A stretch of DNA of 41,154 bases from the NCBI GenBank assembly GCA_026398385.1, contig JAPLSZ010000263.1, positions 1 to 41,154 of the forward strand. Reading direction: 5' to 3'. The stretch comes from Kiritimatiellota bacterium. Lineage in GTDB: Bacteria > Verrucomicrobiota > Kiritimatiellia > CAIQIC01. The position numbers and the translations under genes were made by a program. Below are positions 4,238 to 28,084 of the stretch, one piece after another (the stretch's first letter is position 1; each line of letters begins with the position of its first letter). A model generated the notes under the pieces. It was not told where the DNA came from, ran no database searches, and saw nothing but the letters and a program-made list of their open reading frames with translations.

Positions 4238-4259
4238 GCGCGCCGCCGCGAGGTACGGA

Positions 4260-4991: not shown

Positions 4992-5041
4992 CCACGCCCG
5001 GCGCCGCCGCCACCCGCTTGAACCGAACCCGGTAGCAACCC

Positions 5042-5965
5042 ATGCCCAACCCGCCCAGCGAGCCGAAAGCCGAAGGAATCGCCGCCTTCCTGAATCCCGA
5101 GGAGATGCACAAACTCAACCGGATCGTCCTGCTGTCGCGCTACGTGGTGGAAGGCAACCTGGCCGGCGCGCATCGTAGCCCGCTGAAAGGCGCCAGTTCG
5201 GAGTTTTCGGATCACAAGATGTACGGCATCGGCGACGACCCGAAGCATGTCGACTGGAAGGTGCTGGGTCGCACCGACCGTTACTACGTCAAGCGCTACG
5301 AAGACGAAACCAACCTGCGGGTTTACATCGCCCTCGACCGCAGCGGTTCCATGGGCTACGGCAGCGGCGGGATCACCAAATACCATTTCGCCTGCCGCCT
5401 GGCGGCCGCGCTGGCCTATGTGGTGATCAAGGCGCGGGACTCGGTCGGACTGTTCTTGTTCTCCGACAAGATCGACGTGGAAATGGAGCCCCGCAATTCC
5501 TTCAACCATCTGAACAACCTGCTGAAGCGACTCCAGGAGAAGCCGCCCGCCGCGACCACCCAGGCGGCGGGCGCGCTTCATCAGATCGCCGGGGCGGTCC
5601 GCAAGCGCGGTTTGATCGTCGTGATTTCCGACCTGCTCGACAACGAACACGAGATCAACCTGGCGCTGGCCCATTTCCGGAAGCGGTTGCACGATGTGAT
5701 TGTGTTCCATGTGCTGGACCCGGCGGAACTGGACCTTGCCTTTAATAAAGGCTTTGAGTTCGAAGATCTGGAGACCCTGGAGAAGATCACGGCCGACCCG
5801 CGCACGCTGGCCCAGGAATATCAGCGCGTGTTCGGCGCGTTTCTGGAACAATACCGGACCGCGTGCGAAGGGCTGAAGGTGGATTACCGCCTGGCGCGCA
5901 CCGATCAGACGGCCGAGCAGTTTATCCGGGCCTATCTGGAGGAACGACGGAAGCTTTCGAAGTAG
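5042..5965 (+). CDS. DUF58 domain protein (VWA-like, MoxR-associated)
   Basis: The string GAHRSPLKGASSEFSDHKMYGIGDDPKHVDWKVLGRTDRYYVKRYEDETNLRVYIALDRSGSMGYG is the canonical DUF58 signature, including a D-x-S-x-S MIDAS-like motif. Confidence 0.9.
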   Translation: MPNPPSEPKAEGIAAFLNPEEMHKLNRIVLLSRYVVEGNLAGAHRSPLKGASSEFSDHKMYGIGDDPKHVDWKVLGRTDRYYVKRYEDETNLRVYIALDRSGSMGYGSGGITKYHFACRLAAALAYVVIKARDSVGLFLFSDKIDVEMEPRNSFNHLNNLLKRLQEKPPAATTQAAGALHQIAGAVRKRGLIVVISDLLDNEHEINLALAHFRKRLHDVIVFHVLDPAELDLAFNKGFEFEDLETLEKITADPRTLAQEYQRVFGAFLEQYRTACEGLKVDYRLARTDQTAEQFIRAYLEERRKLSK

Positions 5966-5992
5966 CGGCGCGGAACGGGATGGCTGTGGCTT

Positions 5993-8206: not shown

Positions 8207-8242
8207 CGCGCTGGGCCGCGGGGTGGCCCCGCGGAAAACGAT

Positions 8243-10444: not shown

Positions 10445-10475
10445 TGAAACCGCCGTCGTCAGAAGGAGCTGTTGT

Positions 10476-13400
10476 ATGCCGCCGGGCGCGTTGATCCGTC
10501 AACTGGAACAGATTGGCCGGTTGCTGAACCGGTGGAGCGCCGAGATCCGCCTGGCGGTCTGGGCGGCCGCGGTGCTGCTGGGTCTGACGGTGTGCGCGTT
10601 GGCGGATCTGTGGGTCCGCTTCGCCTCCGCCGGGCGCATCGCGGCCTGGCTGCTGCTCGTGGTCCTGGTAGCGGTCGCCTTGTGGCGGCTGGCCCGGACG
10701 TTGACCCGCGTGCGGACTCCGGAAGCAGTGGCCGTCCGGGTAGAACAAACCTTCCCGCAGATCGACAACCATCTGATCAATTGCCTGCAGTTCTCCTCCG
10801 ACTCCGGCCAGGATCCGTTCAAAGCAGCCTATGTGCAGATGGCGTTGCCGTATTGGAGCGGCTTGGATTTTCAGGCCATGAAGGATCGGCGGACGCAACA
10901 CCGCTCCCTGATCGCGCTGGCGGCGACCGTTTTTTTTCTGCTCCTCCCCTTCCCCATGGCCGGGCGGGCCTGGACGGTGGCCCTGCTGCGCATCGTGAAC
11001 CCCTTCTCGACCCTGCAACCGGCCTCCCTGACCCATATCCTCGGCGTCACCCCGGGCGACGCCTCGGTGCTGCAGGGCGGTTCCACCTGGCTCACGTGTA
11101 CCGTCCAGGGCAAACGGGGCCACGAGGTGTGGGTAGACATCAAGCCGTCGGATGCCGCGCAGAAAACCTATCGTCTCGGACGGATCAACGGATCCGGCGA
11201 AGAGGTGTTCTCCAACCGCATCTATAAGGCCACCACGGCCCTGCAATACCGGTTCCGCGCCGGAGACGCCCCCGCGCCCCGCTGGTTTACCCTGAGCCTG
11301 CGGCCGCCCCTCGCCTTCACCCGCATCGGTTTGCGGGTGGTGCCGCCGTCCTACACCGGCGCCCGCCCCCAACAATTCGACGGCCAGGCCGCGGTGATCG
11401 ACATCCCCATGGGTTCCCGAGTGGAACTGGCGGTCCACTGCAACGCGCCCTGCGCGACGCTCACCGCCGCCTGCCGGGAAGGCGCCGAGGTGCCCTTAAG
11501 TCCGGCGCGCGAGGCCCTGACCTGGACCGGCGCGCTGCTGGTCAGTAATGGCGCCGCGCTCAAGCTGTCCGCGCTTTCCCGGGACGGCGACAAGACCGAA
11601 GCCGTGGTCGCCTTCAACCTCCTGCCGGATCGGGCGCCGAACATCGAGATCTCCGCGCCCAAGGGCGAGGTCCTCCTCGCGCCCGGCAGCGCGCCCGCCA
11701 TCAGTTTCACGGTGACCGACGACTACGGCCTGGATGAAATCACCGTGCAGCGCGTACCGCCGGCCGGGGCCGCAGACGCGCCCGGCCAGGTGCTGAAGAG
11801 CTACAAGTGGATCACCTCCCGGTCGAAGATCTTTACCGCGACCTGGAAAGGGCCGATCCGAAAACTGAGCGACACGGAGCCGCTGACCCTGCGCCTGGTC
11901 GCCAAGGATCAGGCGCCCGGTACTCCGCATGTCACCCAATCGCCGCTGCTGGTGTTCAAGATGATGGGCCGGGAGCAGGCCGTCCAGCAGCGCTCCGAAC
12001 TGGAAAAGAAGGCGCTCGCCGATTTGAACAGGGTGATTGAGCTCCAGCGCGAAAACATCGCCAAAACCAAGCAGTACCAGGAGCTCCGCCCGCCGCCGGC
12101 GGCGGCGTCCTGGACGGCGATCGGCGGGCGGCAGCAGGAAATCCGCGCGATCACCAAAGCCCTCCTGCTCAAGGGCGCGCGCTGCCTGGGCAACCTGAGC
12201 GACACGGTAAAGAAACTGTATCTCGGGGAAATGGCGGAGGTCATCGTCGTGCTGGAACGCGTCGCCGGCGCGCAGGCCGACGCCCAGCCCGGGCTGATCC
12301 GCCAGGCGCTCCAACTCGAGGAAAAGATTTTCCGGCAGTTGACCTTTGCGGAAGTCGCCATCGCCAAGGCCAGCATCGACTTCCGTCAAAACGCGCTGAT
12401 CGGGATGCTGGACGGTCTGATCAAGAATCAGACCAGGCTGTGGCAGGCCACCACGCAATGCATCGGCCGGGCCACGGCGCCGGCGGGGCTGGTCAAGGAG
12501 CAGGACGGACAGGCCGGGGACGTAACCGAATTCATCAAGGCCTGTCAGGCCGAGTCAGCCGCCGTGCTCGGCGCGGACAAGGCGTTTGCCGGGTTCCTGG
12601 AGCAGGTGGCCGGCCAGTGCCGGGATACGAAAATCCGCGAGGACATGCTGCAGGCCGCCGAACAGCTCGACAAGAGCGGTTTCGCGGAAGCGGCCGTCAA
12701 ACAACGGAGCGCCATCGCCAAGCTCATGGCCGTGCGCAAGCTCTTCGACGACATGGTGGCGGCCGCGGAGAAGGAAAAAAACGAACAGCGGATCGAGGCG
12801 CTCCAGAACGCGAACAAGAAGATCGAGAAAATCAAAGCGCTGGAGAAAAAACTCATCGAGGCGATGGATGCGGTCAAGGACGCCAAGGACAAGGACAACA
12901 AGCAGGCCGATATGATGGAGGAGGATTTCGAGGAAGTGGCGAGGAACGCCGAAAAGGCGCTCCTCGAAGTGCCCGTGGATCTGGATATTTTCGCGGATCT
13001 GAACGTCGGCAACGACCTGGTCGAGGACATCAATTCCACCTTTGAGGAAGTCCGCCAGCAGGCGGGCTCGGAGCAGGCCGCGAACGGGCCGGTGGCGGAA
13101 CTCGCGGTGGCCAAGCGCGAAGCCATGCTGGATGCGATGGAAAAGGCCCAGGATCGGATGGATGAGCTGGAGTATTGGCTCAAGACCTCGCCCGACGGGC
13201 TTAAAATCACCACCGAACCTTTCGATAAGGAGGAGATGCCGAACGGCGTCGCCCTGCCGCCGCTGCTGACGAAGGTGGACGACCTGATCGGCGACCTGCT
13301 GAACGAGTCCAAGGAGAAGCAGGCCCAGGACAAGGACGGCGCCATCAATTCCGCCGTGCCCGACATGGCGCCCGACGGTCCCGTCACGGAAGGCGATGTG

Positions 13401-14063
13401 ACCAGTTTTGCCGCCCAGGGAAAATCGGGCAACGAAACGCCGGATCACAAGGAACAGGACGGCCGGTCGAACGTGGGCCGGGAGGGCATGTCCGACGGCG
13501 AAACCGCCGCGGGCTCCGGCACCCTCAGCAAGGGCGATGAAGACATCCAGGCGCGGCGTACTCAGGATCCGACCCAGAGCGGACAGGTCAATCTGGATGG
13601 CGAGTCCAAGGCCAAGGCCACGGGCGGCGGCAAGCTGGGCACCGGCAAGGCCGACGAATATGGCCAGGGCGGCGGCACCCGGCGCATGGATTCCACAGAA
13701 GCCGGCTCTCTCGAAGCCATGGCGGCGCTGATGGCCAAACAGGCCGACGCCGCCTACGCCCAGGCTTCCCTGAAGGGCGTGAAATCGGATTCATTGAAAG
13801 CGGCAGCCCATCACATGCGCCAGGTGGCGGATATGATTGCCCGGGGCGCGCCCATCGACCAGGTGCTGGAACTGCGGCGCAAGGCGCTGGCAGAACTGAA
13901 GGCCGGCCGTACGGAACTGGAACAGGGGAATACCGACGCCCTCGACACCCAGGTGACCGCCTCGATCCTCAAGGATGTGCTGGAGGCCGGGCCGGACGAT
14001 GCGCCGCCCAAATTCAAGGAACTCGTTTCGGAGTATTACAAGAGGCTGAACGATGCCCTGTAA
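10476..14063 (+). CDS. large membrane-anchored coiled-coil / acidic low-complexity protein (possibly DUF4175-like)
   Basis: 1195-aa ORF with GAAGGAG upstream of the ATG and N-terminal TM hairpins (LAVWAAAVLLGLTVCALADLW; AAWLLLVVLVAVALW). It has a long K/E-rich coiled-coil stretch (EKEKNEQRIEALQNANKKIEKIKALEKKLIEAMD...) and an acidic G/D/E-rich tail. The family name is from memory of similar operons only. Confidence 0.7.
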   Translation: MPPGALIRQLEQIGRLLNRWSAEIRLAVWAAAVLLGLTVCALADLWVRFASAGRIAAWLLLVVLVAVALWRLARTLTRVRTPEAVAVRVEQTFPQIDNHLINCLQFSSDSGQDPFKAAYVQMALPYWSGLDFQAMKDRRTQHRSLIALAATVFFLLLPFPMAGRAWTVALLRIVNPFSTLQPASLTHILGVTPGDASVLQGGSTWLTCTVQGKRGHEVWVDIKPSDAAQKTYRLGRINGSGEEVFSNRIYKATTALQYRFRAGDAPAPRWFTLSLRPPLAFTRIGLRVVPPSYTGARPQQFDGQAAVIDIPMGSRVELAVHCNAPCATLTAACREGAEVPLSPAREALTWTGALLVSNGAALKLSALSRDGDKTEAVVAFNLLPDRAPNIEISAPKGEVLLAPGSAPAISFTVTDDYGLDEITVQRVPPAGAADAPGQVLKSYKWITSRSKIFTATWKGPIRKLSDTEPLTLRLVAKDQAPGTPHVTQSPLLVFKMMGREQAVQQRSELEKKALADLNRVIELQRENIAKTKQYQELRPPPAAASWTAIGGRQQEIRAITKALLLKGARCLGNLSDTVKKLYLGEMAEVIVVLERVAGAQADAQPGLIRQALQLEEKIFRQLTFAEVAIAKASIDFRQNALIGMLDGLIKNQTRLWQATTQCIGRATAPAGLVKEQDGQAGDVTEFIKACQAESAAVLGADKAFAGFLEQVAGQCRDTKIREDMLQAAEQLDKSGFAEAAVKQRSAIAKLMAVRKLFDDMVAAAEKEKNEQRIEALQNANKKIEKIKALEKKLIEAMDAVKDAKDKDNKQADMMEEDFEEVARNAEKALLEVPVDLDIFADLNVGNDLVEDINSTFEEVRQQAGSEQAANGPVAELAVAKREAMLDAMEKAQDRMDELEYWLKTSPDGLKITTEPFDKEEMPNGVALPPLLTKVDDLIGDLLNESKEKQAQDKDGAINSAVPDMAPDGPVTEGDVTSFAAQGKSGNETPDHKEQDGRSNVGREGMSDGETAAGSGTLSKGDEDIQARRTQDPTQSGQVNLDGESKAKATGGGKLGTGKADEYGQGGGTRRMDSTEAGSLEAMAALMAKQADAAYAQASLKGVKSDSLKAAAHHMRQVADMIARGAPIDQVLELRRKALAELKAGRTELEQGNTDALDTQVTASILKDVLEAGPDDAPPKFKELVSEYYKRLNDAL

Positions 14064-14165
14064 ACCGGGCCGGCCCGGCGCCCCGTCGCCGGCATCCGTG
14101 CTACGGGATCGGACCCATGGGACAAGGTCGTTGACCGGTACATGCGCTATGGATCTGGGGCTTAC

Positions 14166-16409
14166 ATGACGGGCAAATTGTGGAAATCGCTCGTGAGGTG
14201 GTGGTGGGCGGCTTGGGCCTGCGCGGCACTCCCAGTCTGGGCCGGAGAGCCGTGGCTGGTCAAGGAGGCGCCCATCCGCTTCACGGTCTCGCTGGAGCGA
14301 TCACCCACCCATCCAAGCGCGGGCTATTTCCTGCACCTGCCCGACGGCGGCATGTTGCCCGGCCCGGCGCCCAACCCCCAGGTTTTCGACCAGAGCGGGA
14401 ACGCCCTGAAGAGTTGCGTGCTCTGGCAGAACCCGGAAAGCGGCCTGGCCGTCGTCTTCGAGGCGCCCCAGAACGGCAACCGCGTCGCCATCTATGTCAC
14501 CCAAGGAATGAAGCTGAACGTATGGACGCCGGAGTCCGGTTTGACGCCCAGTGCGATCATCTGCACGTATCCCGGACACCCGAGCAAGGCCGGCGCCGAC
14601 GCCCTGGCCCGGCTGGGACCGGTGGCGGCGAGTGTGCACTATCGCAACGAATCCGGCAGCCAGGGGGCCACCGTGACTCTGCCGGGCGATCGCTCCGGCC
14701 GCCCCGGCCTGGCCGCCATGTATATGCTGGCCTATGTGGCGACGAAGGATCCGGGCAACACCTGGATCGCGCCGATCACGTTCGGCGGCGCGCTGCAGGT
14801 CAGCGTCGATGGCCGGCCGATTAGCCCGCGCAGGATCAGCGACAAGCAGGGTGGCGTGGGCGCACACGTGGATTTAAGCGCCGGGCTGCACCGTCTGGAG
14901 CTGCTCGGATTCTATGCGGCCAGGGACAGCCGGCCGGAGATGTTGCTCACGTGGCGGACGCCTAAGACGCCGGTTAATGAGCTGGGCGGGCTGCGGCCCT
15001 CGGACCTGCGCTACGCGGGCACGCCCATGTGGGAAACCCGCCAGTTGCACAACGATGAAGTCGTACGCTCCGGCGCGTGTGCGATCCAGAGCATCCAGGC
15101 CCGCGAGGGCGGCCCCGTGGCCAACTTCACCCTGGCGCCCAAACACATCTACTGGTTCGACAACGAATCCCCCCTCCTGCTCTACACGCTGCACGCCGGC
15201 ACGGCGGGCAACCCGGCCGGAACCCAATACACCTGGAGTTTCAGCAGCGATCCTGGAGCCCTCGCCACCGGCACGAACATCGCCTGGCTGTTCGCGGGCG
15301 AGCGGGATCAGCGGGTGACGCTGAAGGTCACGGACGGTACGAAGGCATCGCAATGCACCCTGCCGTTTTACCCTTTCACGACCAGCCGCAGCAGCCTGAA
15401 CGAACCCGCGGTGCGCGCGGATTTCCGGAACGCCTGTCTGGCTCTCTTTCGGGCCTATCCGCTGAACAAGGACCCCACCGCCGCCTGGGACGCCAGTTGG
15501 TGGAACAATTTCTTCCGCACCATGGAGCTGACGCCGGATAACGAATTACTGGTGTACATGGTCGACCAGCGGTGGGACCTGTTCGGCAAGAAGCTGCCCC
15601 TGGACAAAAAGGAACTGCTGGAAGACATGTTCCTGGCCAGCACATCGTTCACCGATCCGCCCAGAGCGCTGAAATGGGCTTTGCAGCTCGAACAAAAGGT
15701 GCAACTCCGGTCGCGCGCCATCGCCTTGCGGCTGAAGGGCGCCGAGGTGCTGATGTATGAACTCAAAAATCTGCCGGAGGCCAGAAAATGGATCAAGCCC
15801 CTGGCGGCGGAGACGGGCGAAGGCGGCGCATGGGCCAAAATTAGAATGGGGGACATCGAGTTCCTCTCCCGGAACCTGAACGAGGCGACGCAGTTGTATG
15901 GCGACGTTCAGAACCTCTCCAAGCACAGCAAGCTGGGCCCGCAGGGCGAGGGGTTCAAGCCGCTGCACCTGAAGGGTTCGTCCATGGCCAGAACCGAGGA
16001 GCAAGCGGCGCCGCCGGTGTCCGCCAACCACGCCGTGCCGCCGCCCGGGATCGCCCCCTGGAAACTTGGCGCCATCCGCGATGTGGCCGCTTCGGAATCG
16101 GTCGAAACCCTGATCGAACAGGGTTTCTATTGGGAAGCCTATCAGGCGCTGCGCGCCTGGGAGCGGGAATTTCCGCTGAGCAAGATTTCGAGCGATTATC
16201 TGCTGCTGGAGGGCAAGCTGTGCCTGCAGTTGGGCGATGTGTCCCGCTGCCGCACCCTGCTCGAGGCCTATTGCGAGCAGGTGGACGCCTCGAACTACCT
16301 GGGCGAAGCCCTGCAGATGATCGTGCGTTGCATGCGGGCGATGAACGAACCCAACGAGGCCGTAGCCAAATTTCAGGAAACAATCAGAAAGCGGATGGCG
16401 CTCCAGTAG
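14166..16409 (+). CDS. secreted protein with PA14-like and PKD-like segments and a helical (TPR-like) C-terminus
   Basis: The ATG at 14166 gives the signal peptide MTGKLWKSLVRWWWAAWACAALPVWAG. The PA14-like stretch is ALQVSVDGRPI...VDLSAGLHRLELLGFYAARDSRPEMLLTWRTP. The PKD-like stretch is QYTWSFSSDPGALATGTNIAWLFAGERDQRVTLKVTDG. Confidence 0.6.
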   Translation: MTGKLWKSLVRWWWAAWACAALPVWAGEPWLVKEAPIRFTVSLERSPTHPSAGYFLHLPDGGMLPGPAPNPQVFDQSGNALKSCVLWQNPESGLAVVFEAPQNGNRVAIYVTQGMKLNVWTPESGLTPSAIICTYPGHPSKAGADALARLGPVAASVHYRNESGSQGATVTLPGDRSGRPGLAAMYMLAYVATKDPGNTWIAPITFGGALQVSVDGRPISPRRISDKQGGVGAHVDLSAGLHRLELLGFYAARDSRPEMLLTWRTPKTPVNELGGLRPSDLRYAGTPMWETRQLHNDEVVRSGACAIQSIQAREGGPVANFTLAPKHIYWFDNESPLLLYTLHAGTAGNPAGTQYTWSFSSDPGALATGTNIAWLFAGERDQRVTLKVTDGTKASQCTLPFYPFTTSRSSLNEPAVRADFRNACLALFRAYPLNKDPTAAWDASWWNNFFRTMELTPDNELLVYMVDQRWDLFGKKLPLDKKELLEDMFLASTSFTDPPRALKWALQLEQKVQLRSRAIALRLKGAEVLMYELKNLPEARKWIKPLAAETGEGGAWAKIRMGDIEFLSRNLNEATQLYGDVQNLSKHSKLGPQGEGFKPLHLKGSSMARTEEQAAPPVSANHAVPPPGIAPWKLGAIRDVAASESVETLIEQGFYWEAYQALRAWEREFPLSKISSDYLLLEGKLCLQLGDVSRCRTLLEAYCEQVDASNYLGEALQMIVRCMRAMNEPNEAVAKFQETIRKRMALQ

Positions 16410-16468
16410 GACGCCGGCCGCCGAACAACAATAAACCGCCCGACCAGGGCGGCGGAGGATGAGGGACC

Positions 16469-17932
16469 ATGGCCAGGATTATATTGACGAAGGGCGAGCA
16501 CGCCGGACGGGAAATAACGCTGTCGGGAACCGAATTGGTCTTGGGCCGGGACCCCCAATGCGGCCTGCCCCTGAACGATACCCAGGTATCCTGGCACCAT
16601 GCGCGGCTGTTTTTCGAACGCGACTTGTGGCACGTCCAGGATCTGCAAAGCGCCAACGGTACCCTGGTCAACCGGGTGGAAATCAAAACCGTGCCGCTGA
16701 ACCAAGACGATGTCGTCGTCCTCGGCGAAACCCAGTTTGTGTTCAAACCCGATCGCACGCCCGCGCCAGCGGCGGCCCCTCAACCGGCGGCGGCCAATCG
16801 ACCCGCGGCGCCGCATCCTGCGGCGACGGCGCCCGCCGTGGCCCCGGCGCCCGCGCCGGAACCCCCCAGCGTGGCCACGCCCGAAGACGTGAAGCTGGTG
16901 GAGCGGATGCGGCAATCCACGGATGCCATCCGCCGCGAAGTGGCCAAAGTCATCATCGGCCAGGAGGAGGTCCTGAACCAAATCCTCATGTGCATCATTG
17001 CCGGCGGGCACGTGCTGCTGATCGGCCTGCCGGGGCTGGCCAAGACGCTCACCGTCAGCACCATCGCCAAGGTGCTGGACATGAAATTCAAACGCATCCA
17101 GTTTACGCCCGATCTGATGCCCTCCGACATCACCGGCACCGAGGTGCTGGAGACGGATCCGGTCACCCAGCAGAAGTCCTTCCGCTTCATGCAGGGGCCG
17201 ATTTTCTGCAATATCCTGCTGGCCGACGAAATCAACCGCACGCCGCCCAAGACGCAGGCCGCCCTGCTGGAGGCCATGCAGGAGAAATGCGTCAGCATCG
17301 GCAAAGACACGCACAAGCTGGACAAACCCTTCTTCGTGCTCGCCACGCAGAATCCCATCGAGCAGGAGGGCACCTATCCCTTGCCCGAGGCGCAGCTCGG
17401 CCGGTTCATGTTCATCGTCGGGGTTGAATATCCCAAACGCGAGGAGGAAGAAACCATCGTGGCCAAAACCACCGTGCAGGCCGTGGCGGAGCCGCGCGTG
17501 GTGCTGGGCAAGGAAGCCGTCATCATGCTCCAGGAGGTGGTGCGGAAGATCCCCGTTTCCCGCCACGTGATCGGCTATGCCATCAACCTGGTACGCGCCA
17601 CGCGGCCGGGCGATCCGGAAGCCCTGGAGTTTGTCAAAAAGTACGTTTCGACGGGCGCCGGTCCCCGCGCCGGCCAATACCTGGTGCTGGCCGCCAAGGC
17701 CCGGGCCGTGCTGGAGGGCCGGATTCACGTGAGCTGCAACGACATCCGGAAGGCCGCCCTGCCGGTGCTGCGGCACCGCATCCTCACCAACTTCACCGCC
17801 GACTCCGAAGGCCTGACCTCCCGCGAAATGGTCGAGCGCCTGCTGACCGAGGTCAAGGAGCCCGGCGAGGCCGCCTACACGCCCGCCGACGCGGCGAAGA
17901 AGACGACCGCCGACAAAAAGAAGAAAGCCTGA
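16469..17932 (+). CDS. FHA domain - MoxR-type AAA+ ATPase fusion
   Basis: GGAGGATGAGGG lies upstream of the ATG. Residues 1-95 are FHA-like (LVLGRDPQCGLPLNDTQVSWHHARLFFERDLWHVQDLQSANGTLVNRV). A Pro/Ala linker follows, then MoxR with Walker A GLPGLAKT, Walker B LLADEINR, and FFVLATQNPIEQEGTYPLPEAQLGRF. Confidence 0.9.
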   Translation: MARIILTKGEHAGREITLSGTELVLGRDPQCGLPLNDTQVSWHHARLFFERDLWHVQDLQSANGTLVNRVEIKTVPLNQDDVVVLGETQFVFKPDRTPAPAAAPQPAAANRPAAPHPAATAPAVAPAPAPEPPSVATPEDVKLVERMRQSTDAIRREVAKVIIGQEEVLNQILMCIIAGGHVLLIGLPGLAKTLTVSTIAKVLDMKFKRIQFTPDLMPSDITGTEVLETDPVTQQKSFRFMQGPIFCNILLADEINRTPPKTQAALLEAMQEKCVSIGKDTHKLDKPFFVLATQNPIEQEGTYPLPEAQLGRFMFIVGVEYPKREEEETIVAKTTVQAVAEPRVVLGKEAVIMLQEVVRKIPVSRHVIGYAINLVRATRPGDPEALEFVKKYVSTGAGPRAGQYLVLAAKARAVLEGRIHVSCNDIRKAALPVLRHRILTNFTADSEGLTSREMVERLLTEVKEPGEAAYTPADAAKKTTADKKKKA

Positions 17933-19271: not shown

Positions 19272-19346
19272 CCTGCATTGCTCAAACGCCATGCAGGAAG
19301 CTCGAAACTCGAATATCGAAATCCGAATATAAATGTGAGGTCTAAA

Positions 19347-21320
19347 ATGCAGATCAAGAAATATACGGCCATTTTGACGCTGGTGGGTCTGGCGGTGCTG
19401 GGGGCGTGGGGCGATGTGTGGAAAGATCTGGCCAAATACAAGTACGGCGAAGGCGACGCGGCCGAGGAGGCGCACCACCTCCTCCAGCAGACGCCGGTGG
19501 AGCAGCATGGCGCGATCGAGGACGCGCTGCTCAAGGTGGTGGCGGCCGCCGACGCCACGCCGGACGGCAAGGCGTTGGCCTGCCGCATGCTGCAGCAGGT
19601 GGCGACGGAAAAATCCATCCCTGCCGTGGCCGCGCTGCTCCCGGACGAGGTGCTGTCCCACTACGCCCGGTTGGTGCTGCAGCGGCTTGGAAATCCCCGG
19701 GCCGACGCCGCGCTGCGCGCGGCGTTGGACAAGGCCCCCGACAAGGTCAAGCTGGGTATTATCGGCAGCCTGGGCGAGCGTCGCGATGTCCAGGCCGTGC
19801 CACCGTTGACAAAGTTGGCCCGGCAGCCCGATCCGGCGATCGCCGCGGCGGCCATCGTGGCGCTGGGAAAAATCGGCGGCGCGGAGGCCGCCCGGTCCCT
19901 GGGCGAACTGCAAGCCGGCGACAGCCTCAGCAGCGCGCGCTGGGAGGCCCTAATCCGCTGCGCCGCGAGCCTGCCGGCAGCGGAGGCGGCGGCGCTGTAC
20001 GAAAAGGCCCTCGCGCGCGGTCAGCGCACCCACCAGCTCGCCGCCTTGGGCGGGCTGCTGCGCGTGAACACGGACCAGGCGGCGCCGCGGCTGACGACAA
20101 TTCTCAAGGGCAACGACCTCGGGTTGCAGCGGGGCGCACTGACTCTGGTGGCCGAAGGTGCGGGCGCTGCACCAGTCACCAAGACGCTGACGGATCTGCT
20201 GGGCAGCCTGCCGGAGGCGAAGAAGGCTGGGCTGCTCACGGCCCTCGGCGCACGCGGCGACAAGGCGGCGCTGGCGGCGGTCACCGCCTATGCCGCGAAC
20301 GCGAACACCGGGATCCGCGAGGCCGCGCTGCTGGCGCTCAGCAAGCTCGGCGATGCCGGTACGGTAAAAGTATTGCTGGCCTCGACGGATCCCAAGGCCG
20401 CGGACGCCCTGGCGCGCATGCCCGGCGACGAGGTGAACGACGTGCTCATCCGATGCCTGGCCGACAGCCAGTTGCAAGGGGCGGCTTTGAAGGCGCTGGC
20501 CGCGCGGGCCGGGTCGGCGGCCGTGCCCCAGCTCCTGAAGCTGGTCAATGATCCGGACGCCGGCGTCCGCAAGGCGGTCTGGTCCGGGCTGGGCTCGCTG
20601 GCGACGGAGGAGGACATGGCGGCCGTGGCCGCCGCGGCCTTTGCGATCAAGGACGCCAAGGAAACCGCCGCCGCGTTGGCGGTGCTCAAGAGCATCTGCC
20701 TGCAGGCGCGCGACAAGGGCCGGTGCTTCGATTTCGTGGCGGCGAACTACGACCAGGCCTCCCCCGCGGCCAAGGCCAGCATCGTTGACTTGGCCGCCGC
20801 AGCCGGCTCGCCGGCCGCCCTGGAGGTCGAGCGCAAAGCGCTCAAATCCGGCGATAAGGAATTGTACGGCAAAGCCGTGCGCGCCCTGGCCGCGTGGGGC
20901 AACGCGACCGCCGCCGGGGATCTCCTGGAGCTGGCCCGGAACGCGCCGGCGGACGTGGACCGGCTCCTGGCCCTCCGGGGATACATCCAATTGGCCGGCA
21001 CGGAGAAATTCAAGCTCCATCCCGGCGAGCGGATGGAGCTGTTCAAGAAGGCCGGCGCGCTGGCCAAGCGCGCCGACGAAAAAAAGATGATCATCAGCGG
21101 TTTGATGCTGGCCGGCAGCGCCGACGCGCTGAACATGACGGGTGCGTATTGGGATGACAGCGCGGTGCGCGCGGAGGCGGAATTGACCGCCGACCAACTG
21201 ATGGATGAACTCAAGCAGAAAAATCCGGCCGAGGTGAAAGCCCTGGCCGGCAAGCTCCAGGCCAGCAAGAACGCGGCGCTGGCCAATAAGGCCAGAAAAA
21301 TCCTGGCCGAAATCAAGTAA
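19347..21320 (+). CDS. HEAT-repeat protein, signal peptide
   Basis: The internal ATG at 19347 gives MQIKKYTAILTLVGLAVLGAWG. Ala/Leu-rich ~30-aa repeats of the type IIGSLGERRDVQAVPPLTKLARQPDPAIAAAAIVALGKIGG run throughout. Confidence 0.75.
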   Translation: MQIKKYTAILTLVGLAVLGAWGDVWKDLAKYKYGEGDAAEEAHHLLQQTPVEQHGAIEDALLKVVAAADATPDGKALACRMLQQVATEKSIPAVAALLPDEVLSHYARLVLQRLGNPRADAALRAALDKAPDKVKLGIIGSLGERRDVQAVPPLTKLARQPDPAIAAAAIVALGKIGGAEAARSLGELQAGDSLSSARWEALIRCAASLPAAEAAALYEKALARGQRTHQLAALGGLLRVNTDQAAPRLTTILKGNDLGLQRGALTLVAEGAGAAPVTKTLTDLLGSLPEAKKAGLLTALGARGDKAALAAVTAYAANANTGIREAALLALSKLGDAGTVKVLLASTDPKAADALARMPGDEVNDVLIRCLADSQLQGAALKALAARAGSAAVPQLLKLVNDPDAGVRKAVWSGLGSLATEEDMAAVAAAAFAIKDAKETAAALAVLKSICLQARDKGRCFDFVAANYDQASPAAKASIVDLAAAAGSPAALEVERKALKSGDKELYGKAVRALAAWGNATAAGDLLELARNAPADVDRLLALRGYIQLAGTEKFKLHPGERMELFKKAGALAKRADEKKMIISGLMLAGSADALNMTGAYWDDSAVRAEAELTADQLMDELKQKNPAEVKALAGKLQASKNAALANKARKILAEIK

Positions 21321-21366
21321 CCGAGCCTCTAAACTCAGGGGTCAAGGCGGAATTCAACATTGCGCT

Positions 21367-22113
21367 TTACGTCCGGATGAGGCCGGCGCAAGCGGGACAG
21401 TCGGGCCGGCGCTCGACCGTCAGTGTGGTGAACGTCATCTGCTCGGCGTCGAAGACCAGCAGCTTGCCCAGCAGCGACGCGCCGAGGCCGGTCAGGAGCT
21501 TGAGGGCTTCCGTGGCTTGCAGGCAGCCAGCGAGGCCCGGCGTGACGCCGGCGACGGGAAAAACCTCCCGGGGTGGGGCGTCAGGGAAAATACAACGGAG
21601 GCAGGGCGTCCGGGGCGGATGCAGCACCGTGATCTGCCCGGACAACCCCCAGATGGCGGCGTGAATCAGCGGGATGCTGTGCCGGACGCTGTAGGCATTC
21701 AGCACATACCGGGTGTCGAAGTTGTCGAGACAATCCAGGATGAGGTCCACCGGCCCGACGATGCGCTCGATGTTATGCTCGGCGATCCGCTCGCCGGAGG
21801 AGTTGACGGCGATGGCGGGATTCAAGCGCCGCAGCACCTCGGCCGCAACCTCCGCTTTCGGACGGCCCAGATCGGCATCGGTGTAAAGAATCTGCCGGTT
21901 GAGGTTGGAGAGGTCGGGGCGGTCGCAATCGCCCAGGCCGATGGTCCCGACGCCGGCGGCGGCCAGATAGAGGGCCACCGGGCTGCCTAGCCCGCCGGCG
22001 CCGACGATAAACACCCGGGCGCGCTTGAGGCGCTCCTGCCCCGGCACACCCCAGCCGCCGATCATCATCTGCCGCCCGTAGCGCGTGCAGTCATAGTCCG
22101 TTAACGCTGCCAT
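21367..22113 (-). CDS. ThiF/MoeB/HesA-family E1-like adenylyltransferase (no rhodanese domain)
   Basis: YGRQMMIGGWGVPGQERLKRARVFIVGAGGLGSPVALYLAAAGVG...SNLNRQILY is the canonical ThiF/MoeB N-terminus. It has two CxxC pairs (CLRC, CPAC). GGAGAG lies 4 nt upstream of the ATG, and the gap to the carrier gene is 23 nt. Confidence 0.9.
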   Translation of the reverse strand: MAALTDYDCTRYGRQMMIGGWGVPGQERLKRARVFIVGAGGLGSPVALYLAAAGVGTIGLGDCDRPDLSNLNRQILYTDADLGRPKAEVAAEVLRRLNPAIAVNSSGERIAEHNIERIVGPVDLILDCLDNFDTRYVLNAYSVRHSIPLIHAAIWGLSGQITVLHPPRTPCLRCIFPDAPPREVFPVAGVTPGLAGCLQATEALKLLTGLGASLLGKLLVFDAEQMTFTTLTVERRPDCPACAGLIRT

Positions 22114-22136
22114 CAGGCTCTCCGAAAAAGTACGTC

Positions 22137-22415
22137 TTATCCCCCGGCGACGGCCACGACGATCACGATTTCCTCGCTACCGCCAAGCGGAGTGTCGTCG
22201 CCCTGCAGCGTCCGGATATCCCGGCCGTTGACAAAAATCGCGATGAACTTCCGCAGGTTCCCGCCCTCGTCGCACAGCCGGGCCCGCAGGCCGGGATACT
22301 GGCGCTCCAGATCGGCCACCAGCTCGCGGATGGTGCCGCCCGCCGTCTGAACCGCAGCGCGCCCCTGGGTGAGTTGACGCAAGGATGCCGGCATCGCAAT
22401 GTTCATAAAACTCAT
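22137..22415 (-). CDS. MoaD/ThiS-family ubiquitin-like sulfur-carrier protein (C-terminal Gly-Gly)
   Basis: The 92-aa reading from the ATG at 22415 ends ...EEIVIVVAVAGG. ELVADLERQYPGLRARLCDEGGNLRKFIAIFVNGRDIR resembles CysO/MoaD-type carriers. The start overlaps the upstream stop as ATGA (22412-22415). The longer 122-aa ORF in the track would overlap the YcaO gene by 90 nt. Confidence 0.85.
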   Translation of the reverse strand: MSFMNIAMPASLRQLTQGRAAVQTAGGTIRELVADLERQYPGLRARLCDEGGNLRKFIAIFVNGRDIRTLQGDDTPLGGSEEIVIVVAVAGG

Positions 22416-25234
22416 CCGCCTTTTAAAAAATCCGCCAGCAATGCGCGGGTGCACTGCGCGCGCGCGGCGATGAAGCCGGACGGCTGGTACTCCGGCACAA
22501 ACCACAACTCCAGGCCGGGGATGATCACCTTCACGCTGCTCACGCCATAGCGCTCCAGCGGACTTGTATTGGCGACGAGCATACGACGATGGCCGGCGGA
22601 AAGCAAACAGCCGATGACATGCTCCAGCTCATCCGTAATGGAGGCGAAGCGGAGTTCCTCCGTGCGAAGGGTCTGGCAAGCCAGCGGGGTTTCGCCGGAC
22701 GCGACCTGGGCGGCCTGGTAGGCGAGGCGCGCTTCCCGGAGCGGTTGGAACGAGCGATAGTCGTCGCGGATGCCCGTGAAGTAGGCAATATGCTGCATAT
22801 AGACCTCGTGCAGCGTCGCCGCCACGGCGGACGGCAGATCGGCCCGCACGGCGGTGCTGCCGTGGCCTTCGATGCCGCGGTGGGCATCGAACAACCGGCA
22901 GCGCACGCAGGGCAGCCCGAACAGGTTGGGCAGTATATACAGGGCAATCCGGCAGCCCTTCTCCTCCAGCCGCCCGATCAGTTCCCGGCTGCGCGGATCC
23001 GGCAGGGTGGCCGGATCCAGGCGCAACCGGGGGAGTTGCTCGCGGCAAAATGGGTCGACTGAATAAAGCTGGTTGGTGTCGCGCTCCACCAGTTCGTACA
23101 GGCCGTAGAGCAGCGCTTCGGGCAGGGTGTTGCCGGCCGCGTTGCCATCGGTGCCGGAAAACATGGACATGACGGCGAAGCGCGGAACGCTGCAGGGCTG
23201 GCCGGAGGGCAGTTCGGTGACAGTCACAAAGCCGTGATCCTCCGCTACCTGTTGCTTGATCTGCGGGTCCACAGCGAAGTTGTAATACTGCGGAATGTTC
23301 TCCAGGGGCTCCGGAATCCGATCGACTTGGTTGCCCTTAAAAGCGGCGCGTCGGAAGTTGTGCGTGGGAATTCGTTCCACCAGTTCCATGTAGGCGGCGG
23401 CCAGCGCCTCGGCGAAGACCTCGCCGTTGCCGGTGGACGAGGACAGCGGATAGCCCAGAAAATAGAAGGGCACGAAGAAGATGTTGACGATAAAACTGCC
23501 GCCCGGTGGATCGTAGCCCGTGGTGTCGGCCACCACCACGTCCAAATCCCGGAAGAATTCCTCCGCCCGCCGGCAGGTTTCCTCCGCCGGCAGCGCCCGC
23601 CGGTCCCGGCGCGGATGGCCGCGGCCGTCCGGCGGCGCGGCAAACTCGCGCCAGGCGGCCGGCAGCGTGAGATCCGCATCGCCGCGGTACTTGGCGTACA
23701 GGCGTTCCATGTAGCGGACGCGCGCCTGGCGGAAGGTTTTCCGGACATAATCCGCCGCGCGTCCGGCGAGGATCTCCCGGAAGCAGGCCAGCAGTTGACG
23801 TGCATCGGCCTGCTTGATGGCGAAGCGCTCCGCACCCTCCCGGGCGTAGTAGTCCTCGAGCCGGCGCAGCGCCGGCTCGGCGAGCGAACCGGCTTCCCGG
23901 AGGCGGCGGAAGAAAAAATCGAACGAGAGCAGCGGGAAGCCGATGCCGTCGGCCACCGCGCGGCATTGCTCCGCTTCCCCGGCGCCGAGCAGTCCGTCGC
24001 TGGTGGCACATTCCAGAAAATAAATGATTTCGACCAACGGCCGGGTCAGCGCCGCATCGTCTTCCGTGTACGTCTGCGCCACGATGTGGTAGGGCTTGAT
24101 GGGCTGCCGGCGGAGGTAGTCATACACGTAGCCGACCCCCGTCATGCCATAGCGGTCGAGCTCGACGGCTCGCAGCGCGCCGATGCTGGCGGCGCCAAAC
24201 ACATTGAGCCCCTGCTCCAGCGCCAAGACGACTTCAAACGTGGTGCAGGGGAACTTGGAATAAAAATAGCCGTCCAGGATCAGGATGTTCCGGAAGCCCG
24301 CCAGGATCGCCATCAGCAGGTCCCCCTGCTCCACCGGCGTGGTGTACACCAGGCGCGGGTCGGGCGGGGCTTCCGCCCGCGGCAGGCTGCCCCCGATGAA
24401 AGCGATGGTGTCCTCCGTTTGTGGAACCACCACGGATGCATAGCCGGGATGTTGCTTCACGTCGGTGAACGCGTAGCAGGCGGCTTGGCAACGGCAGGCC
24501 GCGCAGGGCGGCAGGTAGGCGTGCCGTTGCCCGGCCACCTTGCCGATGGTGTAGCGCTGGGATCCGATCAGGCCCCGCAGATCGTTCAAGGAATACCGGA
24601 ACAAAGCTTTGAAGTGCGCCGGGGGCGCCAGGCAGAAGGGGAAGCCGGCCAGGCTGACCCCCGGCCGCCGTGAGCGCGGATCGTCGAGGAACAGCGCCAG
24701 TTCGGAACGCCAGACCGCCGCGGATTCGGCCGTGAGCGCAGGGAAACCGTAGATGAACACAAGGCTTTCGAGCGCGCCGTCTTCCAGCCCAGCGCAAAGG
24801 GGCGCGGCGCCGCCGGCGTCGAAGCCGCCCACATACACGTGCAGGTGGATGCCCAGGTTGTAGGCGGTGGCAAAACGGTGCAGCGCCTCCCGGTGGGACG
24901 CGAGCTCCGCCTGAATTTTCTCGAAATCGGCCCGGGCCGACGCCGCGGCGACCTTTTGCATCACGGTGATGTGCCGGAGCGGAAGCGGGCGGCCCGGGTA
25001 GCGCTGCAGGAATTCCTCGATCGCCTGGCGCAGCCCCTGGTGGCGGAAAATGCTGCCGTCGGCCACGGTCGGCCGGCTGTCCGCCAGGCCGAAACCAGAC
25101 AGGGTTTCGATGAAGGCGCCGACCCCGGCATAGTACGTCGGATCGCTGCTCTGGAACACCGCCCAACGCGGCGTCTCCTCGCCGAAAAACAATTGCATCC
25201 GCGCGTCCATCGTTGGAGTGGAATGTAGCCACAC
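22412..25234 (-). CDS. three-part fusion: unknown Cys-rich N-domain + TfuA-like domain + YcaO domain
   Basis: Single uninterrupted 940-aa frame. TfuA-like region (aa ~277-390): IAFIGGSLP...PVEQGDLLMAILAGFRNILILDGYFYSKFPCTTFEVVLALEQGLNVFGAASIGALRAVELDRYGMTGVG. YcaO region (aa ~545-925): EETCRRAEEFFRDLDVVVADTTGYDPPG, STGNGEVFAEALAAAYMELVERI, GNAAGNTLPEALLYGLYELVERD. The start may instead be the ATG at 25210 (MDARMQLFF). Confidence 0.85.
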   Translation of the reverse strand: MWLHSTPTMDARMQLFFGEETPRWAVFQSSDPTYYAGVGAFIETLSGFGLADSRPTVADGSIFRHQGLRQAIEEFLQRYPGRPLPLRHITVMQKVAAASARADFEKIQAELASHREALHRFATAYNLGIHLHVYVGGFDAGGAAPLCAGLEDGALESLVFIYGFPALTAESAAVWRSELALFLDDPRSRRPGVSLAGFPFCLAPPAHFKALFRYSLNDLRGLIGSQRYTIGKVAGQRHAYLPPCAACRCQAACYAFTDVKQHPGYASVVVPQTEDTIAFIGGSLPRAEAPPDPRLVYTTPVEQGDLLMAILAGFRNILILDGYFYSKFPCTTFEVVLALEQGLNVFGAASIGALRAVELDRYGMTGVGYVYDYLRRQPIKPYHIVAQTYTEDDAALTRPLVEIIYFLECATSDGLLGAGEAEQCRAVADGIGFPLLSFDFFFRRLREAGSLAEPALRRLEDYYAREGAERFAIKQADARQLLACFREILAGRAADYVRKTFRQARVRYMERLYAKYRGDADLTLPAAWREFAAPPDGRGHPRRDRRALPAEETCRRAEEFFRDLDVVVADTTGYDPPGGSFIVNIFFVPFYFLGYPLSSSTGNGEVFAEALAAAYMELVERIPTHNFRRAAFKGNQVDRIPEPLENIPQYYNFAVDPQIKQQVAEDHGFVTVTELPSGQPCSVPRFAVMSMFSGTDGNAAGNTLPEALLYGLYELVERDTNQLYSVDPFCREQLPRLRLDPATLPDPRSRELIGRLEEKGCRIALYILPNLFGLPCVRCRLFDAHRGIEGHGSTAVRADLPSAVAATLHEVYMQHIAYFTGIRDDYRSFQPLREARLAYQAAQVASGETPLACQTLRTEELRFASITDELEHVIGCLLSAGHRRMLVANTSPLERYGVSSVKVIIPGLELWFVPEYQPSGFIAARAQCTRALLADFLKGG

Positions 25235-25275: not shown

Positions 25276-25730
25276 CTATTCCAGCAAGGCCCGGTCCCGG
25301 CTTGGTGCCCCGCCGGTCGTCAGTATCCTGGGCATCGCCGCCTTGTTCACTGCCGAGAAGCTGCTTGTGATCACTTTTTTGAGTTCATCGATGGTTAAGG
25401 CGCGGCGACTCTCTTGCTGGAGCTCCGGCAAGACAACGTCGCTCCACGGGTTTTCCAGTAGACCGGCCGGGAGGCGCAATCGGGCAAACAGGCTCTTCAG
25501 AAATTTAAAATTCCAGCCGCAGTGCGGCTGGCGAAGCCTTCCCGGTGCAGATTGGCAGCGTACCGCTCCACCCGTGCCGGGGTGCCCTCGTGCAGGTATA
25601 TGATCCCTTCGCCCTCGGCCCACTTTTGGAACCGCTGCCACGCGGGGCGATAGCTGGCGATGGTGTCGTCCGCGGGTTGCCGCTTTTTCGATGCTTGCTC
25701 CCACGCGTCCCAGGCGGCCTTGATTTCCAC
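25276..25730 (-). pseudogene. tyrosine recombinase/integrase relic (N-terminal SAM-like domain only, frameshifted and 3'-truncated)
   Basis: EIKAAWDAWEQ...IASYRPAWQRFQKWAEGEGIIYLHEGTPARVERYAANLHREGFASRTAAGILNF stops at 25497. It continues in another frame as LKSLFARLRLPAGLLENPWSDVVLPELQQESRRALTIDELKKVI. Adding one T to the minus-strand TTT run (plus-strand AAA at 25501-25503) restores ...GILNFLKSLFARL. The catalytic R..HxxR..Y domain is absent. Confidence 0.55.
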
Positions 25731-26105
25731 GCGTTCGGTGGTGCCGGCCAGCAGGGCAGCAGCGGCGCGGAGGGATGATTGCGAGGAATAAACCGCATTG
25801 CCAGCATTCTGGCGGGTAGAACTGGCCTACGGCCGTCTGGGCCACGTCGCGCTACCTGCCGACCGGTTGGGCGATCCCGAGCGCGATTGCGGGTCGGAAA
25901 AAGTCCGCATAAAGGGCTTGCAAAACCCATCCGCCAGGTAACAATTGACGAATGAATGTTTGCGGCACTCAGGTGGCGCGGAAAACGGCGCTCTCCCGGC
26001 GGGCGCGCCAAAGCAATTTCTTATTTGTACATTAACCTCATCGCCCGCCCGTTGCTCGGTGTCAGCCTCAACGAAATCAAAACCGCCCTCAACAAAGTAA
26101 CCACT

Positions 26106-27763: not shown

Positions 27764-28084
27764 TGATTACGAAGCGACGCCAAGCTGCTGGCGGAGATTC
27801 TGCGATTGCATCGCGACAAACTCTCCGCCTGGAAGCCGGATGATACCCAGACACGGACCTTGACTATCCTGAACGAGGAACGGCGTAAGGCGGCGGACCT
27901 CGGCACCAAGCTCGTCCTGCGCTTGCAGGCGTCCATTACGGAATACGACCGGCAGATCGCGCAGTTGTTCCGCCGGCATCCCGATGCCTTCATCTTCGAG
28001 GGAGTGCCCGGCGCCGGACCTGCCTTGGGACCACGACTGCTGAGCGCCTTTGGCACAGACCGCCAACAGCTCCAGGAGGCGTGA
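27764..28084 (+). pseudogene. IS110-family transposase internal fragment
   Basis: LRSDAKLLAEILRLHRDKLSAWKPDDTQTRTLTILNEERRKAADLGTKLVLRLQASITEYDRQIAQLFRRHPDAFIFEGVPGAGPALGPRLLSAFGTDR matches the end of the DEDD domain and the start of the helix-hairpin-helix (Transposase_20) region of IS110 transposases. It is bounded by stops, and both the N-terminal catalytic part and the C-terminus are missing. Confidence 0.6.

Follow-up and report, generated by a model that had tools for sequence, protein, structure and literature searches.

The window analysed here is a 41,154-nucleotide stretch of a Kiritimatiellota bacterium genome (contig JAPLSZ010000263.1, positions 1 to 41,154), and our subject is a three-gene cassette on its reverse strand. 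The first gene (22412-25234) encodes a fusion of an N-terminal domain with TfuA and YcaO domains, in an open reading frame (ORF) of 940 amino acids (aa) from GTG 25234; the second (22137-22415) encodes a ThiS/MoaD/SAMP-like carrier of 92 aa with the C-terminus VAGG; and the third (21367-22113) encodes a ThiF/MoeB-type E1 adenylyltransferase of 248 aa. An earlier account made from the letters alone (the sequence-only reading) had described a tightly coupled arrangement, and the DNA agrees with it: the TGA stop of the fusion gene and the ATG of the ThiS gene share an ATGA overlap, and a GGAGAG lies inside the 23-nt ThiS–ThiF spacer, ahead of the ThiF ATG. The database gene call for the fusion (P0001) starts at ATG 25198 and gives 928 aa, and comparison with the homologue in a related locus, L009, suggests ATG 25210; one of these two is likely the true start, rather than GTG 25234.

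Domains and conserved residues of the cassette proteins

The three proteins were compared with Pfam and NCBIfam profiles, and TfuA, YcaO, ThiS and ThiF were each matched. In the fusion, TfuA (PF07812; 23774-24409, residues 321-433 of the 940-aa frame) is recognized with an E-value of 3e-21 and 75.8 bits (cut-off 30), and YcaO (PF02624; 22508-23431, residues 602-909) with an E-value of 2.5e-34 and 119.5 bits (cut-off 25.7), which bears out the proposal of a single frame with TfuA N-terminal to YcaO. The carrier matches ThiS (PF02597; E 1e-12, 48.7 bits, cut-off 22.5), and AGG stands directly before the stop in 11 of 11 carrier orthologues. The E1 matches ThiF (PF00899; E 1e-75, 254 bits) and has the GAGGLG nucleotide loop and two CxxC pairs (CLRC and CPAC) that had been read from its sequence, and no rhodanese domain; in the PDB it matches E. 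coli ThiF (1zfn, E 1e-54) and MoeB (1jw9, E 2e-49). None of the NCBIfam equivalog cut-offs is reached. The fusion scores 114.4 bits (E 5e-33) against the 235.2 set for McrA-type TfuA (NF033432) and 46.1 bits against the 365 set for McrA-type YcaO (TIGR03266); the E1 scores 284.8 of 449 for MoeB (PRK08762), 212 of 275 for ThiF (TIGR02356) and 246 of 450 for UbaA; and the top matches of the carrier, SAMP1 and moaD_arch, both fall under their own cut-offs. These proteins are therefore superfamily members, not orthologues of the characterized housekeeping or methanogen enzymes.

A family profile built from 34 fusion members matches Methanosarcina acetivorans TfuA (6xp8, E 2.5e-35) and the Methanocaldococcus jannaschii YcaO MJ1094 (6pe3, E 4.6e-28) in the PDB, and also the cyclodehydratases TruD and LynD and the peptidase MusD. 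AlphaFold2 (AF2) predicts the full-length fusion as a compact protein with one disordered loop (predicted local distance difference test, pLDDT, 90.1; predicted template modelling score, pTM, 0.91). With Foldseek this model is matched best by the peptide-bound structure of the thioamide-forming M. jannaschii YcaO (6peu; E 1.4e-15, template modelling score TMt 0.76) and by TfuA of M. acetivorans (6xp8; TMt 0.85, root-mean-square deviation 2.6 Å). Both ExxER motifs for ATP and Mg binding in YcaO (YMELVER and YELVERD) are invariant in the 34 sequences, at E605, E608, R609, E702, E705 and R706. In the TfuA domain the GGS motif (Ser271 in the numbering of P0001) is invariant and the lysine of K462-x-x-D-A nearly so, and both are identical in 6xp8; Ser271 and K462 are the putative catalytic Ser-Lys pair of the TfuA hydrolase, as reportedly assigned by Liu et al. 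2021.

The sequence-only reading saw the fusion as TfuA plus YcaO, and this was incomplete, as a conserved N-terminal domain of about 265-270 aa (24410-25198, reverse strand) had been overlooked. It belongs to no Pfam or NCBIfam family (with E allowed up to 10 for Pfam and 0.1 for NCBIfam). Modelled alone it is predicted confidently, with a pLDDT of 89.9 and a pTM of 0.87, and a Foldseek search of the PDB gave nothing significant, the best hits (E 0.047, TM < 0.3) being to partial TIM barrels. Searched by profile, 1.84 billion representative proteins yielded 27 matches, of which 24 have the fusion architecture of about 900 aa or are shorter proteins resembling fragments of it. Two more are marginal matches to small HxsC/MoaA-type radical S-adenosylmethionine (radical-SAM) proteins (E about 1e-3 with hmmsearch), and in hhalign the C-terminal half of these two aligns with the domain, at probabilities of 82% and 59%. 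The remaining match, a 2,347-aa cadherin/Ig-repeat protein, is low-scoring and repetitive and was set aside as apparently spurious. Four cysteines (C189, C232, C235 and C241 in the numbering of P0001; nt 24476-24634) are invariant in the family and belong to an FPFC...CX2CX5C motif that falls inside the hhalign alignment. The radical-SAM motif CX3CX2C and a PF04055 match are absent from the domain, and there is no cysteine in its first ~130 residues. We infer a degenerate radical-SAM/twitch-like half barrel, remotely related to radical-SAM proteins, which may still bind a metal or an Fe-S cluster.

Distribution and gene neighbourhoods

The fusion family consists of 42 clusters (90% identity) among 5.8 billion proteins, nearly all of them full-length at about 880-970 aa. 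Its sources belong throughout to the Planctomycetes-Verrucomicrobia-Chlamydiae (PVC) superphylum or the Omnitrophota, those named being Lentisphaerae (79% identity), Victivallales, Kiritimatiellia, Verrucomicrobiota and Omnitrophota; source genomes were sought among species-representative genomes, and the best 80 matches were kept. Other genes of the window (PSD1/PSCyt2, DUF1501, BatA and others) are consistent with a PVC origin. TfuA/YcaO matches from Thaumarchaeota, Sorangium and Acidobacteriota, which resembled fusions when tabulated, were rejected as members, the inspected loci having the classical arrangement of YcaO followed by TfuA and no N-terminal domain.

A survey of fusion neighbourhoods for ThiS and ThiF, the check that the sequence-only reading had recommended, was made by placing the proteins of the window on 32 related loci, all non-redundant. 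Of these, 28 have enough downstream sequence to be scored, and in 17 of the 28 ThiS comes immediately after the fusion; the cassette arrangement is therefore not due to chance. ThiF and the stand-alone YcaO described below (YcaO2) were counted on 25 loci; ThiF is present in just six, and the E1 is thus an optional add-on. No thi or moa genes accompany ThiS and ThiF in the window or the related loci, and the housekeeping association that had been named as a reason to doubt the cassette is not seen there. No persulfide donor (cysteine desulfurase or rhodanese) is encoded in the cassette. The dedicated sulfur relay hard-wired to YcaO that had been proposed fits the carrier, whose adjacency is conserved and often translationally coupled across phyla, but with no donor encoded there the relay is not complete.

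In 11 of the same 25 loci YcaO2 is encoded within 4 kb downstream of the fusion, directly after the fusion, ThiS or ThiF, and a radical-SAM gene of ~620 aa then follows YcaO2 wherever the contig reaches far enough. The same pair forms the left edge of the window on the forward strand. YcaO2 (3-971; PF02624, E 4.5e-45) is cut by the contig start, with about 88 N-terminal residues missing from a family whose full length is ~425 aa, and is 56% identical to YcaO2 of locus L001. The gene after it (952-2820) encodes a B12-type radical-SAM C-methyltransferase that scores 456.2 bits with TIGR03975 (cut-off 281.85), a family for the maturation of peptides made on the ribosome and modified after translation (RiPPs); TIGR03975 orthologues come after YcaO2 in the class-A loci. 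YcaO2 was considered as a substitute for ThiF in ThiS activation and rejected, since L001 has both and L016-L018 have YcaO2 without ThiS.

Downstream of this pair, here and likewise in relatives, is a long operon (window 2927-17932, forward strand) that Pfam describes as DUF4159, orf4221 (256 aa), DUF58, BatA/VWA, GATase1-like/BatD, proteins of 1195 and 755 aa, and an FHA-MoxR AAA+ protein. Pfam matches neither of the two large proteins (10476-14063 and 14142-16409), which are kept next to the fusion in L021 and L089. To our knowledge, BatA/MoxR/DUF4159-type envelope operons have no established function. Genes of this operon lie near the fusion in 12 of the 32 loci, and the linkage is spread over Lentisphaerae, Kiritimatiellia, Verrucomicrobiota and Omnitrophota. 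In class-A loci the fusion is at the 5' end of the operon, and in L012, L021/L106, L089 and L093 it is at the 3' (MoxR) end; in the window YcaO2 and the radical-SAM gene precede the operon and the cassette lies 3.4 kb past MoxR in convergent orientation, so that the two enzyme sets bracket the operon. Given the recurrent contiguity with YcaO2 and the radical-SAM gene and the tie to the operon, the cassette is not self-contained, contrary to what had been thought; the accompanying guess of a link to the left-edge locus was a good one, since it is this very pair that follows the fusion in relatives.

The autonomous look of the cassette in the window has a probable source. Window 21363-25214 shares 82-84% nucleotide homology with L009 (699-4628) and L090 (5020-8947), two Lentisphaerae contigs that are its closest relatives and are 98% identical to each other. 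The homology begins at window 25211-25214 and ends at 21363, covers exactly the three genes and is bordered by unrelated flanks, and there are no direct or inverted repeats of at least 9 nt flanking the cassette. The cassette seems, from these comparisons, to have been relocated as a unit in the Lentisphaerae lineage, which would account for its appearance.

With 327 clusters, the YcaO2 family exceeds the fusion family in size. Where the fusion is lacking, YcaO2 occupies the same operon context, and ahead of it are encoded a nitroreductase-family protein and a flavoprotein of ~800 aa (Fer4_20/Pyr_redox_2/Oxidored_FMN), as in L169 (6746-11260), L170 (6449-11290), L171 (6550-11275) and L175 (3304-9972). 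The nitroreductase family is that of the azoline dehydrogenases, and the three proteins look like an azole-forming type of enzyme set.

Several further features adjoin the cassette or its relatives. On one side of it in the window is a convergent HEAT gene (19278-21320; HEAT_2, E 5e-31), as had been predicted. On the other is an integrase-like remnant (25276-25845, reverse strand) with a piece of a SAM-like N-terminal domain at 25497-25730, which continues frame-shifted and without a catalytic domain; the decayed integrase of the sequence-only reading thus survives as a weak N-terminal remnant, but its score with Phage_int_SAM_1 (E 3e-4, 21.4 bits) falls just short of the cut-off of 22.3. A 92-aa ORF at 27806-28084 (forward strand), which by eye has the look of an IS110/transposase fragment, has no Pfam match at E up to 0.1. 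A scan for promoters and terminators gave no signal exceeding that of shuffled sequence. Immediately upstream of the fusion in L001 (351-10000) is a complete type I-C CRISPR-Cas system (Cas3, Cas5d, Csd1, Cas7, Cas4, Cas1 and Cas2) with a repeat array. Toxin-antitoxin and defence-type genes (HipAB, zeta toxin, DUF4062 with SLFN/AlbA_2, and HepT/MNT) are found in or beside the YcaO2/operon clusters, with such insertions at L175 1115-2683 and 6711-8582, L007 9396-11581 and L171 18414-19041.

smallP, a candidate substrate

No precursor-like ORF was found in or adjoining the cassette, either in the ORF list or by searches of the window. The absence of a precursor noted in the sequence-only reading accordingly holds for the present contig, but the relatives encode a strong candidate substrate gene, smallP, which was found by clustering all ORFs of the related loci. 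smallP is a protein of ~85 aa whose N-terminus resembles a signal peptide and which has the motif GDGSxExGFVxPP, a linker rich in Pro, a short core and the tail TPMxRTEAKKPPxPPxLxTKLK; the N-terminus, too, is invariant (AATLCxGT). The flanks are conserved and the core is of two types. In the intergenic gaps of eight related clusters no other conserved small ORF was found, and none adjoins the fusion.

The core xIPGGCT occurs in six of the six fusion loci that reach smallP: L001 (15511-15753), L002 (20608-20859), L007 (11841-12098), L016 (20238-20492), L018 (9935-10189) and L174 (10001-10225). CCCC-type cores (TDPCCCCPV, LDCCSCCPV and LDACCCCPV) occur in three loci with YcaO2 and the nitroreductase and flavoprotein genes, namely L170 (11358-11636), L171 (1976-2239) and L175 (10001-10339). 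The co-variation of core and enzyme set therefore rests on nine loci. smallP is normally the first gene of the DUF4159–MoxR operon. It stands between YcaO2 and the radical-SAM gene in L001, directly after YcaO2 in L170 and L175, directly after the radical-SAM gene in L171, and just upstream of the main DUF4159 gene in L002, L007, L016, L018 and L174. A database search gave 540 smallP clusters (90% identity), which lack both a Pfam assignment and informative names; of the 120 best, about 85 are of the xIPGGCT type and about 25 of the CCCC type, with a few intermediates. smallP is the best substrate candidate because it adjoins YcaO2, has conserved flanks and a Cys-containing core, and changes its core type along with the enzyme set. 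Its absence from the contig is possibly due to its lying beyond the contig edge. Alternatively, the substrate could be a protein of the DUF4159–MoxR operon.

In relatives, anti-sigma factors paired with an extracytoplasmic function (ECF) sigma factor are encoded downstream of the radical-SAM gene (L007 8565-9131, L002 18522-20498, L016 ~18011, L018 ~8312 and L101 ~16549). These bear a periplasmic module that resembles smallP but has no Cys, or else a DUF4159 domain with GDGSxExGFVxPP ahead of it.

Interpretation and relation to known systems

We propose, with a probability of roughly 60%, that the cassette carries out thioamidation and sulfur delivery as one arm of a larger modification system conserved in bacteria of the PVC superphylum. 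Archaeal TfuA is reported to hydrolyse thiocarboxylated ThiS (ThiS-COSH) and so release sulfide for YcaO (PMC13063428, PMC8939145), and thioamide-forming YcaOs use ThiS-COSH together with TfuA (PMC13063428). By homology, ThiF would adenylate the Gly-Gly terminus of the ThiS-like carrier, and a persulfide donor encoded elsewhere would turn the adenylate into the ThiS thiocarboxylate. The TfuA domain, as a Ser/Lys hydrolase acting as in the published archaeal biochemistry, would then free sulfide from ThiS-COSH beside the fused YcaO domain, which would O-phosphorylate a substrate backbone amide using ATP, so that attack by sulfide would yield the thioamide. The N-terminal domain with its four invariant cysteines would, more speculatively, provide a metal or Fe-S site, a place for substrate docking, or both. 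This module would work with YcaO2 and the B12 radical-SAM C-methyltransferase (window 3-2820), YcaO2 making an azoline at the core Cys or activating a second amide and the radical-SAM enzyme adding a C-methyl group. The most likely substrate would be smallP with the core xIPGGCT, and the modified smallP might be exported to work with the periplasmic DUF4159 protein.

The TfuA-dependent, ThiS-fed thioamidation of the sequence-only reading fits the conserved and often coupled ThiS across phyla and the thioamide-type structural matches. Several observations weigh against the system proposed here. The fusion is far under the equivalog cut-offs of McrA-type TfuA and YcaO, it has no adjoining ThiS in about 40% of loci, and the chemistry assigned to its family is predicted from sequence and models. 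In L009 and L090 the flanks (~5 kb upstream and 9 kb downstream) hold no YcaO2 or operon gene. smallP was not found in the 41-kb contig by tblastn, by a hidden Markov model search of the six-frame translation or by motif regular expressions; in most loci it abuts DUF4159 and not the enzymes, and in L172 and L173 it lies next to DUF4159 without a modifying enzyme within 10 kb upstream. The smallP clusters with xIPGGCT cores (about 85 of the best 120) outnumber the 42 fusion clusters. The N-terminus of smallP is signal-peptide-like, and a Cys-less smallP module forms the periplasmic end of the anti-sigma factors, so that smallP could be an ordinary periplasmic partner of DUF4159.

For the part played by smallP our proposal is accordingly more tentative, and we would put it forward as a possibility worth pursuing and not as the expected outcome. 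It is that smallP is modified in the cytoplasm by YcaO-family enzymes, as an undescribed class of ribosomal peptide or protein modification in PVC bacteria. In the same tentative scheme the xIPGGCT branch might acquire a thioamide and a C-methyl group through the fusion, YcaO2 and the B12 radical-SAM enzyme, and the CCCC branch might acquire thiazoles through YcaO2 and the nitroreductase-type dehydrogenase. Equally tentatively, the modified smallP could be exported and act with the periplasmic proteins of the operon, as a cofactor-like peptide with metal or redox activity, for example.

Of the alternatives the one that fares best, though we consider it unlikely, is that the cassette thioamidates a protein encoded in trans (for instance a housekeeping protein, as uL16 or McrA are) as a self-contained unit, independent of the left-edge genes and the operon. 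Protein substrates of YcaO thioamidation are on record (PMC5589413, PMC13063428), the same three genes stand alone in unrelated flanks in the L009/L090 and P0002 contigs, where DNA homology stops at the cassette borders, and L005, L014 and L100 have fusion and ThiS without YcaO2 or an operon gene within 5-10 kb. Such independence is hard to square with the YcaO2–radical-SAM contiguity that recurs in 11 of 25 loci, with operon genes near the fusion in 12 of 32 loci, drawn from Lentisphaerae, Kiritimatiellia, Verrucomicrobiota and Omnitrophota, and with the window itself, where just 3.4 kb separates the cassette from the operon's MoxR end and YcaO2 and the radical-SAM gene are at the other end.

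Somewhat less probable again is that no thioamide is made, the fused YcaO catalysing azoline or amidine formation or peptide cleavage, with TfuA mainly as an allosteric or substrate-affinity partner and ThiS serving another sulfur step. YcaO enzymes do catalyse several reactions, the fusion profile matches TruD, LynD and MusD, the Cys and Thr of the candidate core (GGCTT) are open to cyclization, and the fusion does not reach the McrA-thioamidation cut-offs. Yet the best matches in both sequence and structure are to the thioamide-forming MJ1094 YcaO and to TfuA, the putative TfuA catalytic residues are invariant, and a dedicated ThiS is the commonest neighbour of the fusion; YcaO2, moreover, is available for cyclodehydration and is elsewhere paired with a nitroreductase-family dehydrogenase.

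We regard it as improbable that ThiS and ThiF form a SAMP/UbaA-type ubiquitin-like conjugation pair with TfuA as the processing or deconjugating hydrolase. The GG terminus would suit such a pair, and SAMP1 is the top NCBIfam match of the carrier and UbaA among the best of the E1, but both matches are far under the equivalog cut-offs, among solved E1s the nearest are ThiF and MoeB of bacteria, none of the loci has an E2-like or JAMM gene, ThiF is absent from most loci, and TfuA has a documented role as a ThiS-COSH hydrolase (PMC13063428). That ThiS and ThiF serve thiamine or molybdopterin housekeeping and adjoin the fusion by chance is very improbable, for although the E1 resembles E. coli ThiF and MoeB, the fusion and ThiS genes are translationally coupled through ATGA, ThiS adjacency is kept in 17 of 28 loci across phyla, thi and moa genes are lacking from the window and related loci, and no NCBIfam equivalog cut-off is reached.

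The proposed arm of a larger modification system resembles several known ones. With the archaeal McrA thioglycine system it shares the TfuA and YcaO catalytic families and the dependence on a ThiS-type carrier (PMC13063428). It differs in that TfuA is fused N-terminal to YcaO and accompanied by an extra domain of ~270 aa, in that ThiS (in some cases with ThiF) has its gene in the operon and not in trans, and in its bacterial PVC host, its substrate, which is not McrA, and its scores below the equivalog cut-offs. Bacterial TfuA-YcaO RiPP clusters (thioamitides, thiovarsolins and that of Burkholderia thailandensis) likewise combine TfuA and YcaO with radical-SAM tailoring (PMC8120280). In Malit et al. 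2021 (PMC8120280) a fused tfuA-ycaO is reported in B. thailandensis beside two radical-SAM genes, and ThiS is listed in their Figure 5 among the genes of TfuA clusters, so that neither the fusion nor the co-location with ThiS is unprecedented. The B. thailandensis cluster is of a different lineage, with no Burkholderia locus among the best 80 matches in species-representative genomes, and the present loci are set apart from these clusters by the family-only N-terminal domain, the DUF4159/BatA/MoxR setting and the lack of a classical leader-core precursor.

With ThiS-ThiF and MoaD-MoeB systems the cassette shares a GG-terminated beta-grasp carrier and an E1 of the Zn-binding type (two CxxC pairs) with GxGxxG. 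Here, however, there is no linkage to thiamine or molybdopterin genes, no score that reaches an equivalog cut-off, no rhodanese domain and no nearby sulfurtransferase, and the E1 gene is dispensable in most relatives. Bottromycin- and proteusin-type pathways also have two YcaO domains without an E1-like or RiPP recognition element (RRE) partner, together with a TIGR03975 C-methyltransferase; the differences are the TfuA/ThiS arm, a candidate substrate that is signal-peptide-like, with two core types instead of hypervariability, and the absence from our loci of the protease or exporter genes typical of such antibiotic clusters. Bufferins are Sec-signal-bearing, Cys-modified periplasmic RiPPs (PMC11626156) and so set a precedent for a RiPP that carries a Sec signal, and smallP is like them in its signal-peptide-like N-terminus, its Cys core and, presumably, modification in the cytoplasm before export, with YcaO, TfuA and radical-SAM enzymes in the place of MNIO and no DUF2282 or DUF2063 partner. 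Finally, the N-terminal domain recalls SPASM/twitch maturases and pseudo-SAM/SPASM proteins in that it aligns to the C-terminal half of HxsC/MoaA-like proteins, but it lacks CX3CX2C and the homology is marginal.

As far as we can tell, four elements are new: the three-domain architecture with its putative pseudo-radical-SAM domain, the complete cassette of fusion, ThiS and ThiF, the systematic linkage of the fusion with the DUF4159/BatA/MoxR operon, and the smallP family with its two core types. Among the papers searched, none names DUF4159 and YcaO together.

If the proposal is right, the carrier, E1, TfuA hydrolase and YcaO would be genetically hard-wired, two of them covalently joined, and the cassette would be a convenient test bed for sulfide delivery to thioamide-forming YcaOs, a route that a 2026 study leaves open for E. 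coli uL16 (PMC13063428). The N-terminal domain would be a new accessory module in YcaO enzymology. As a candidate substrate smallP is concrete and testable, its two discrete core types varying together with the enzyme set, and the comparative data link backbone-modifying enzymes to a BatA/MoxR/DUF4159-type envelope operon.

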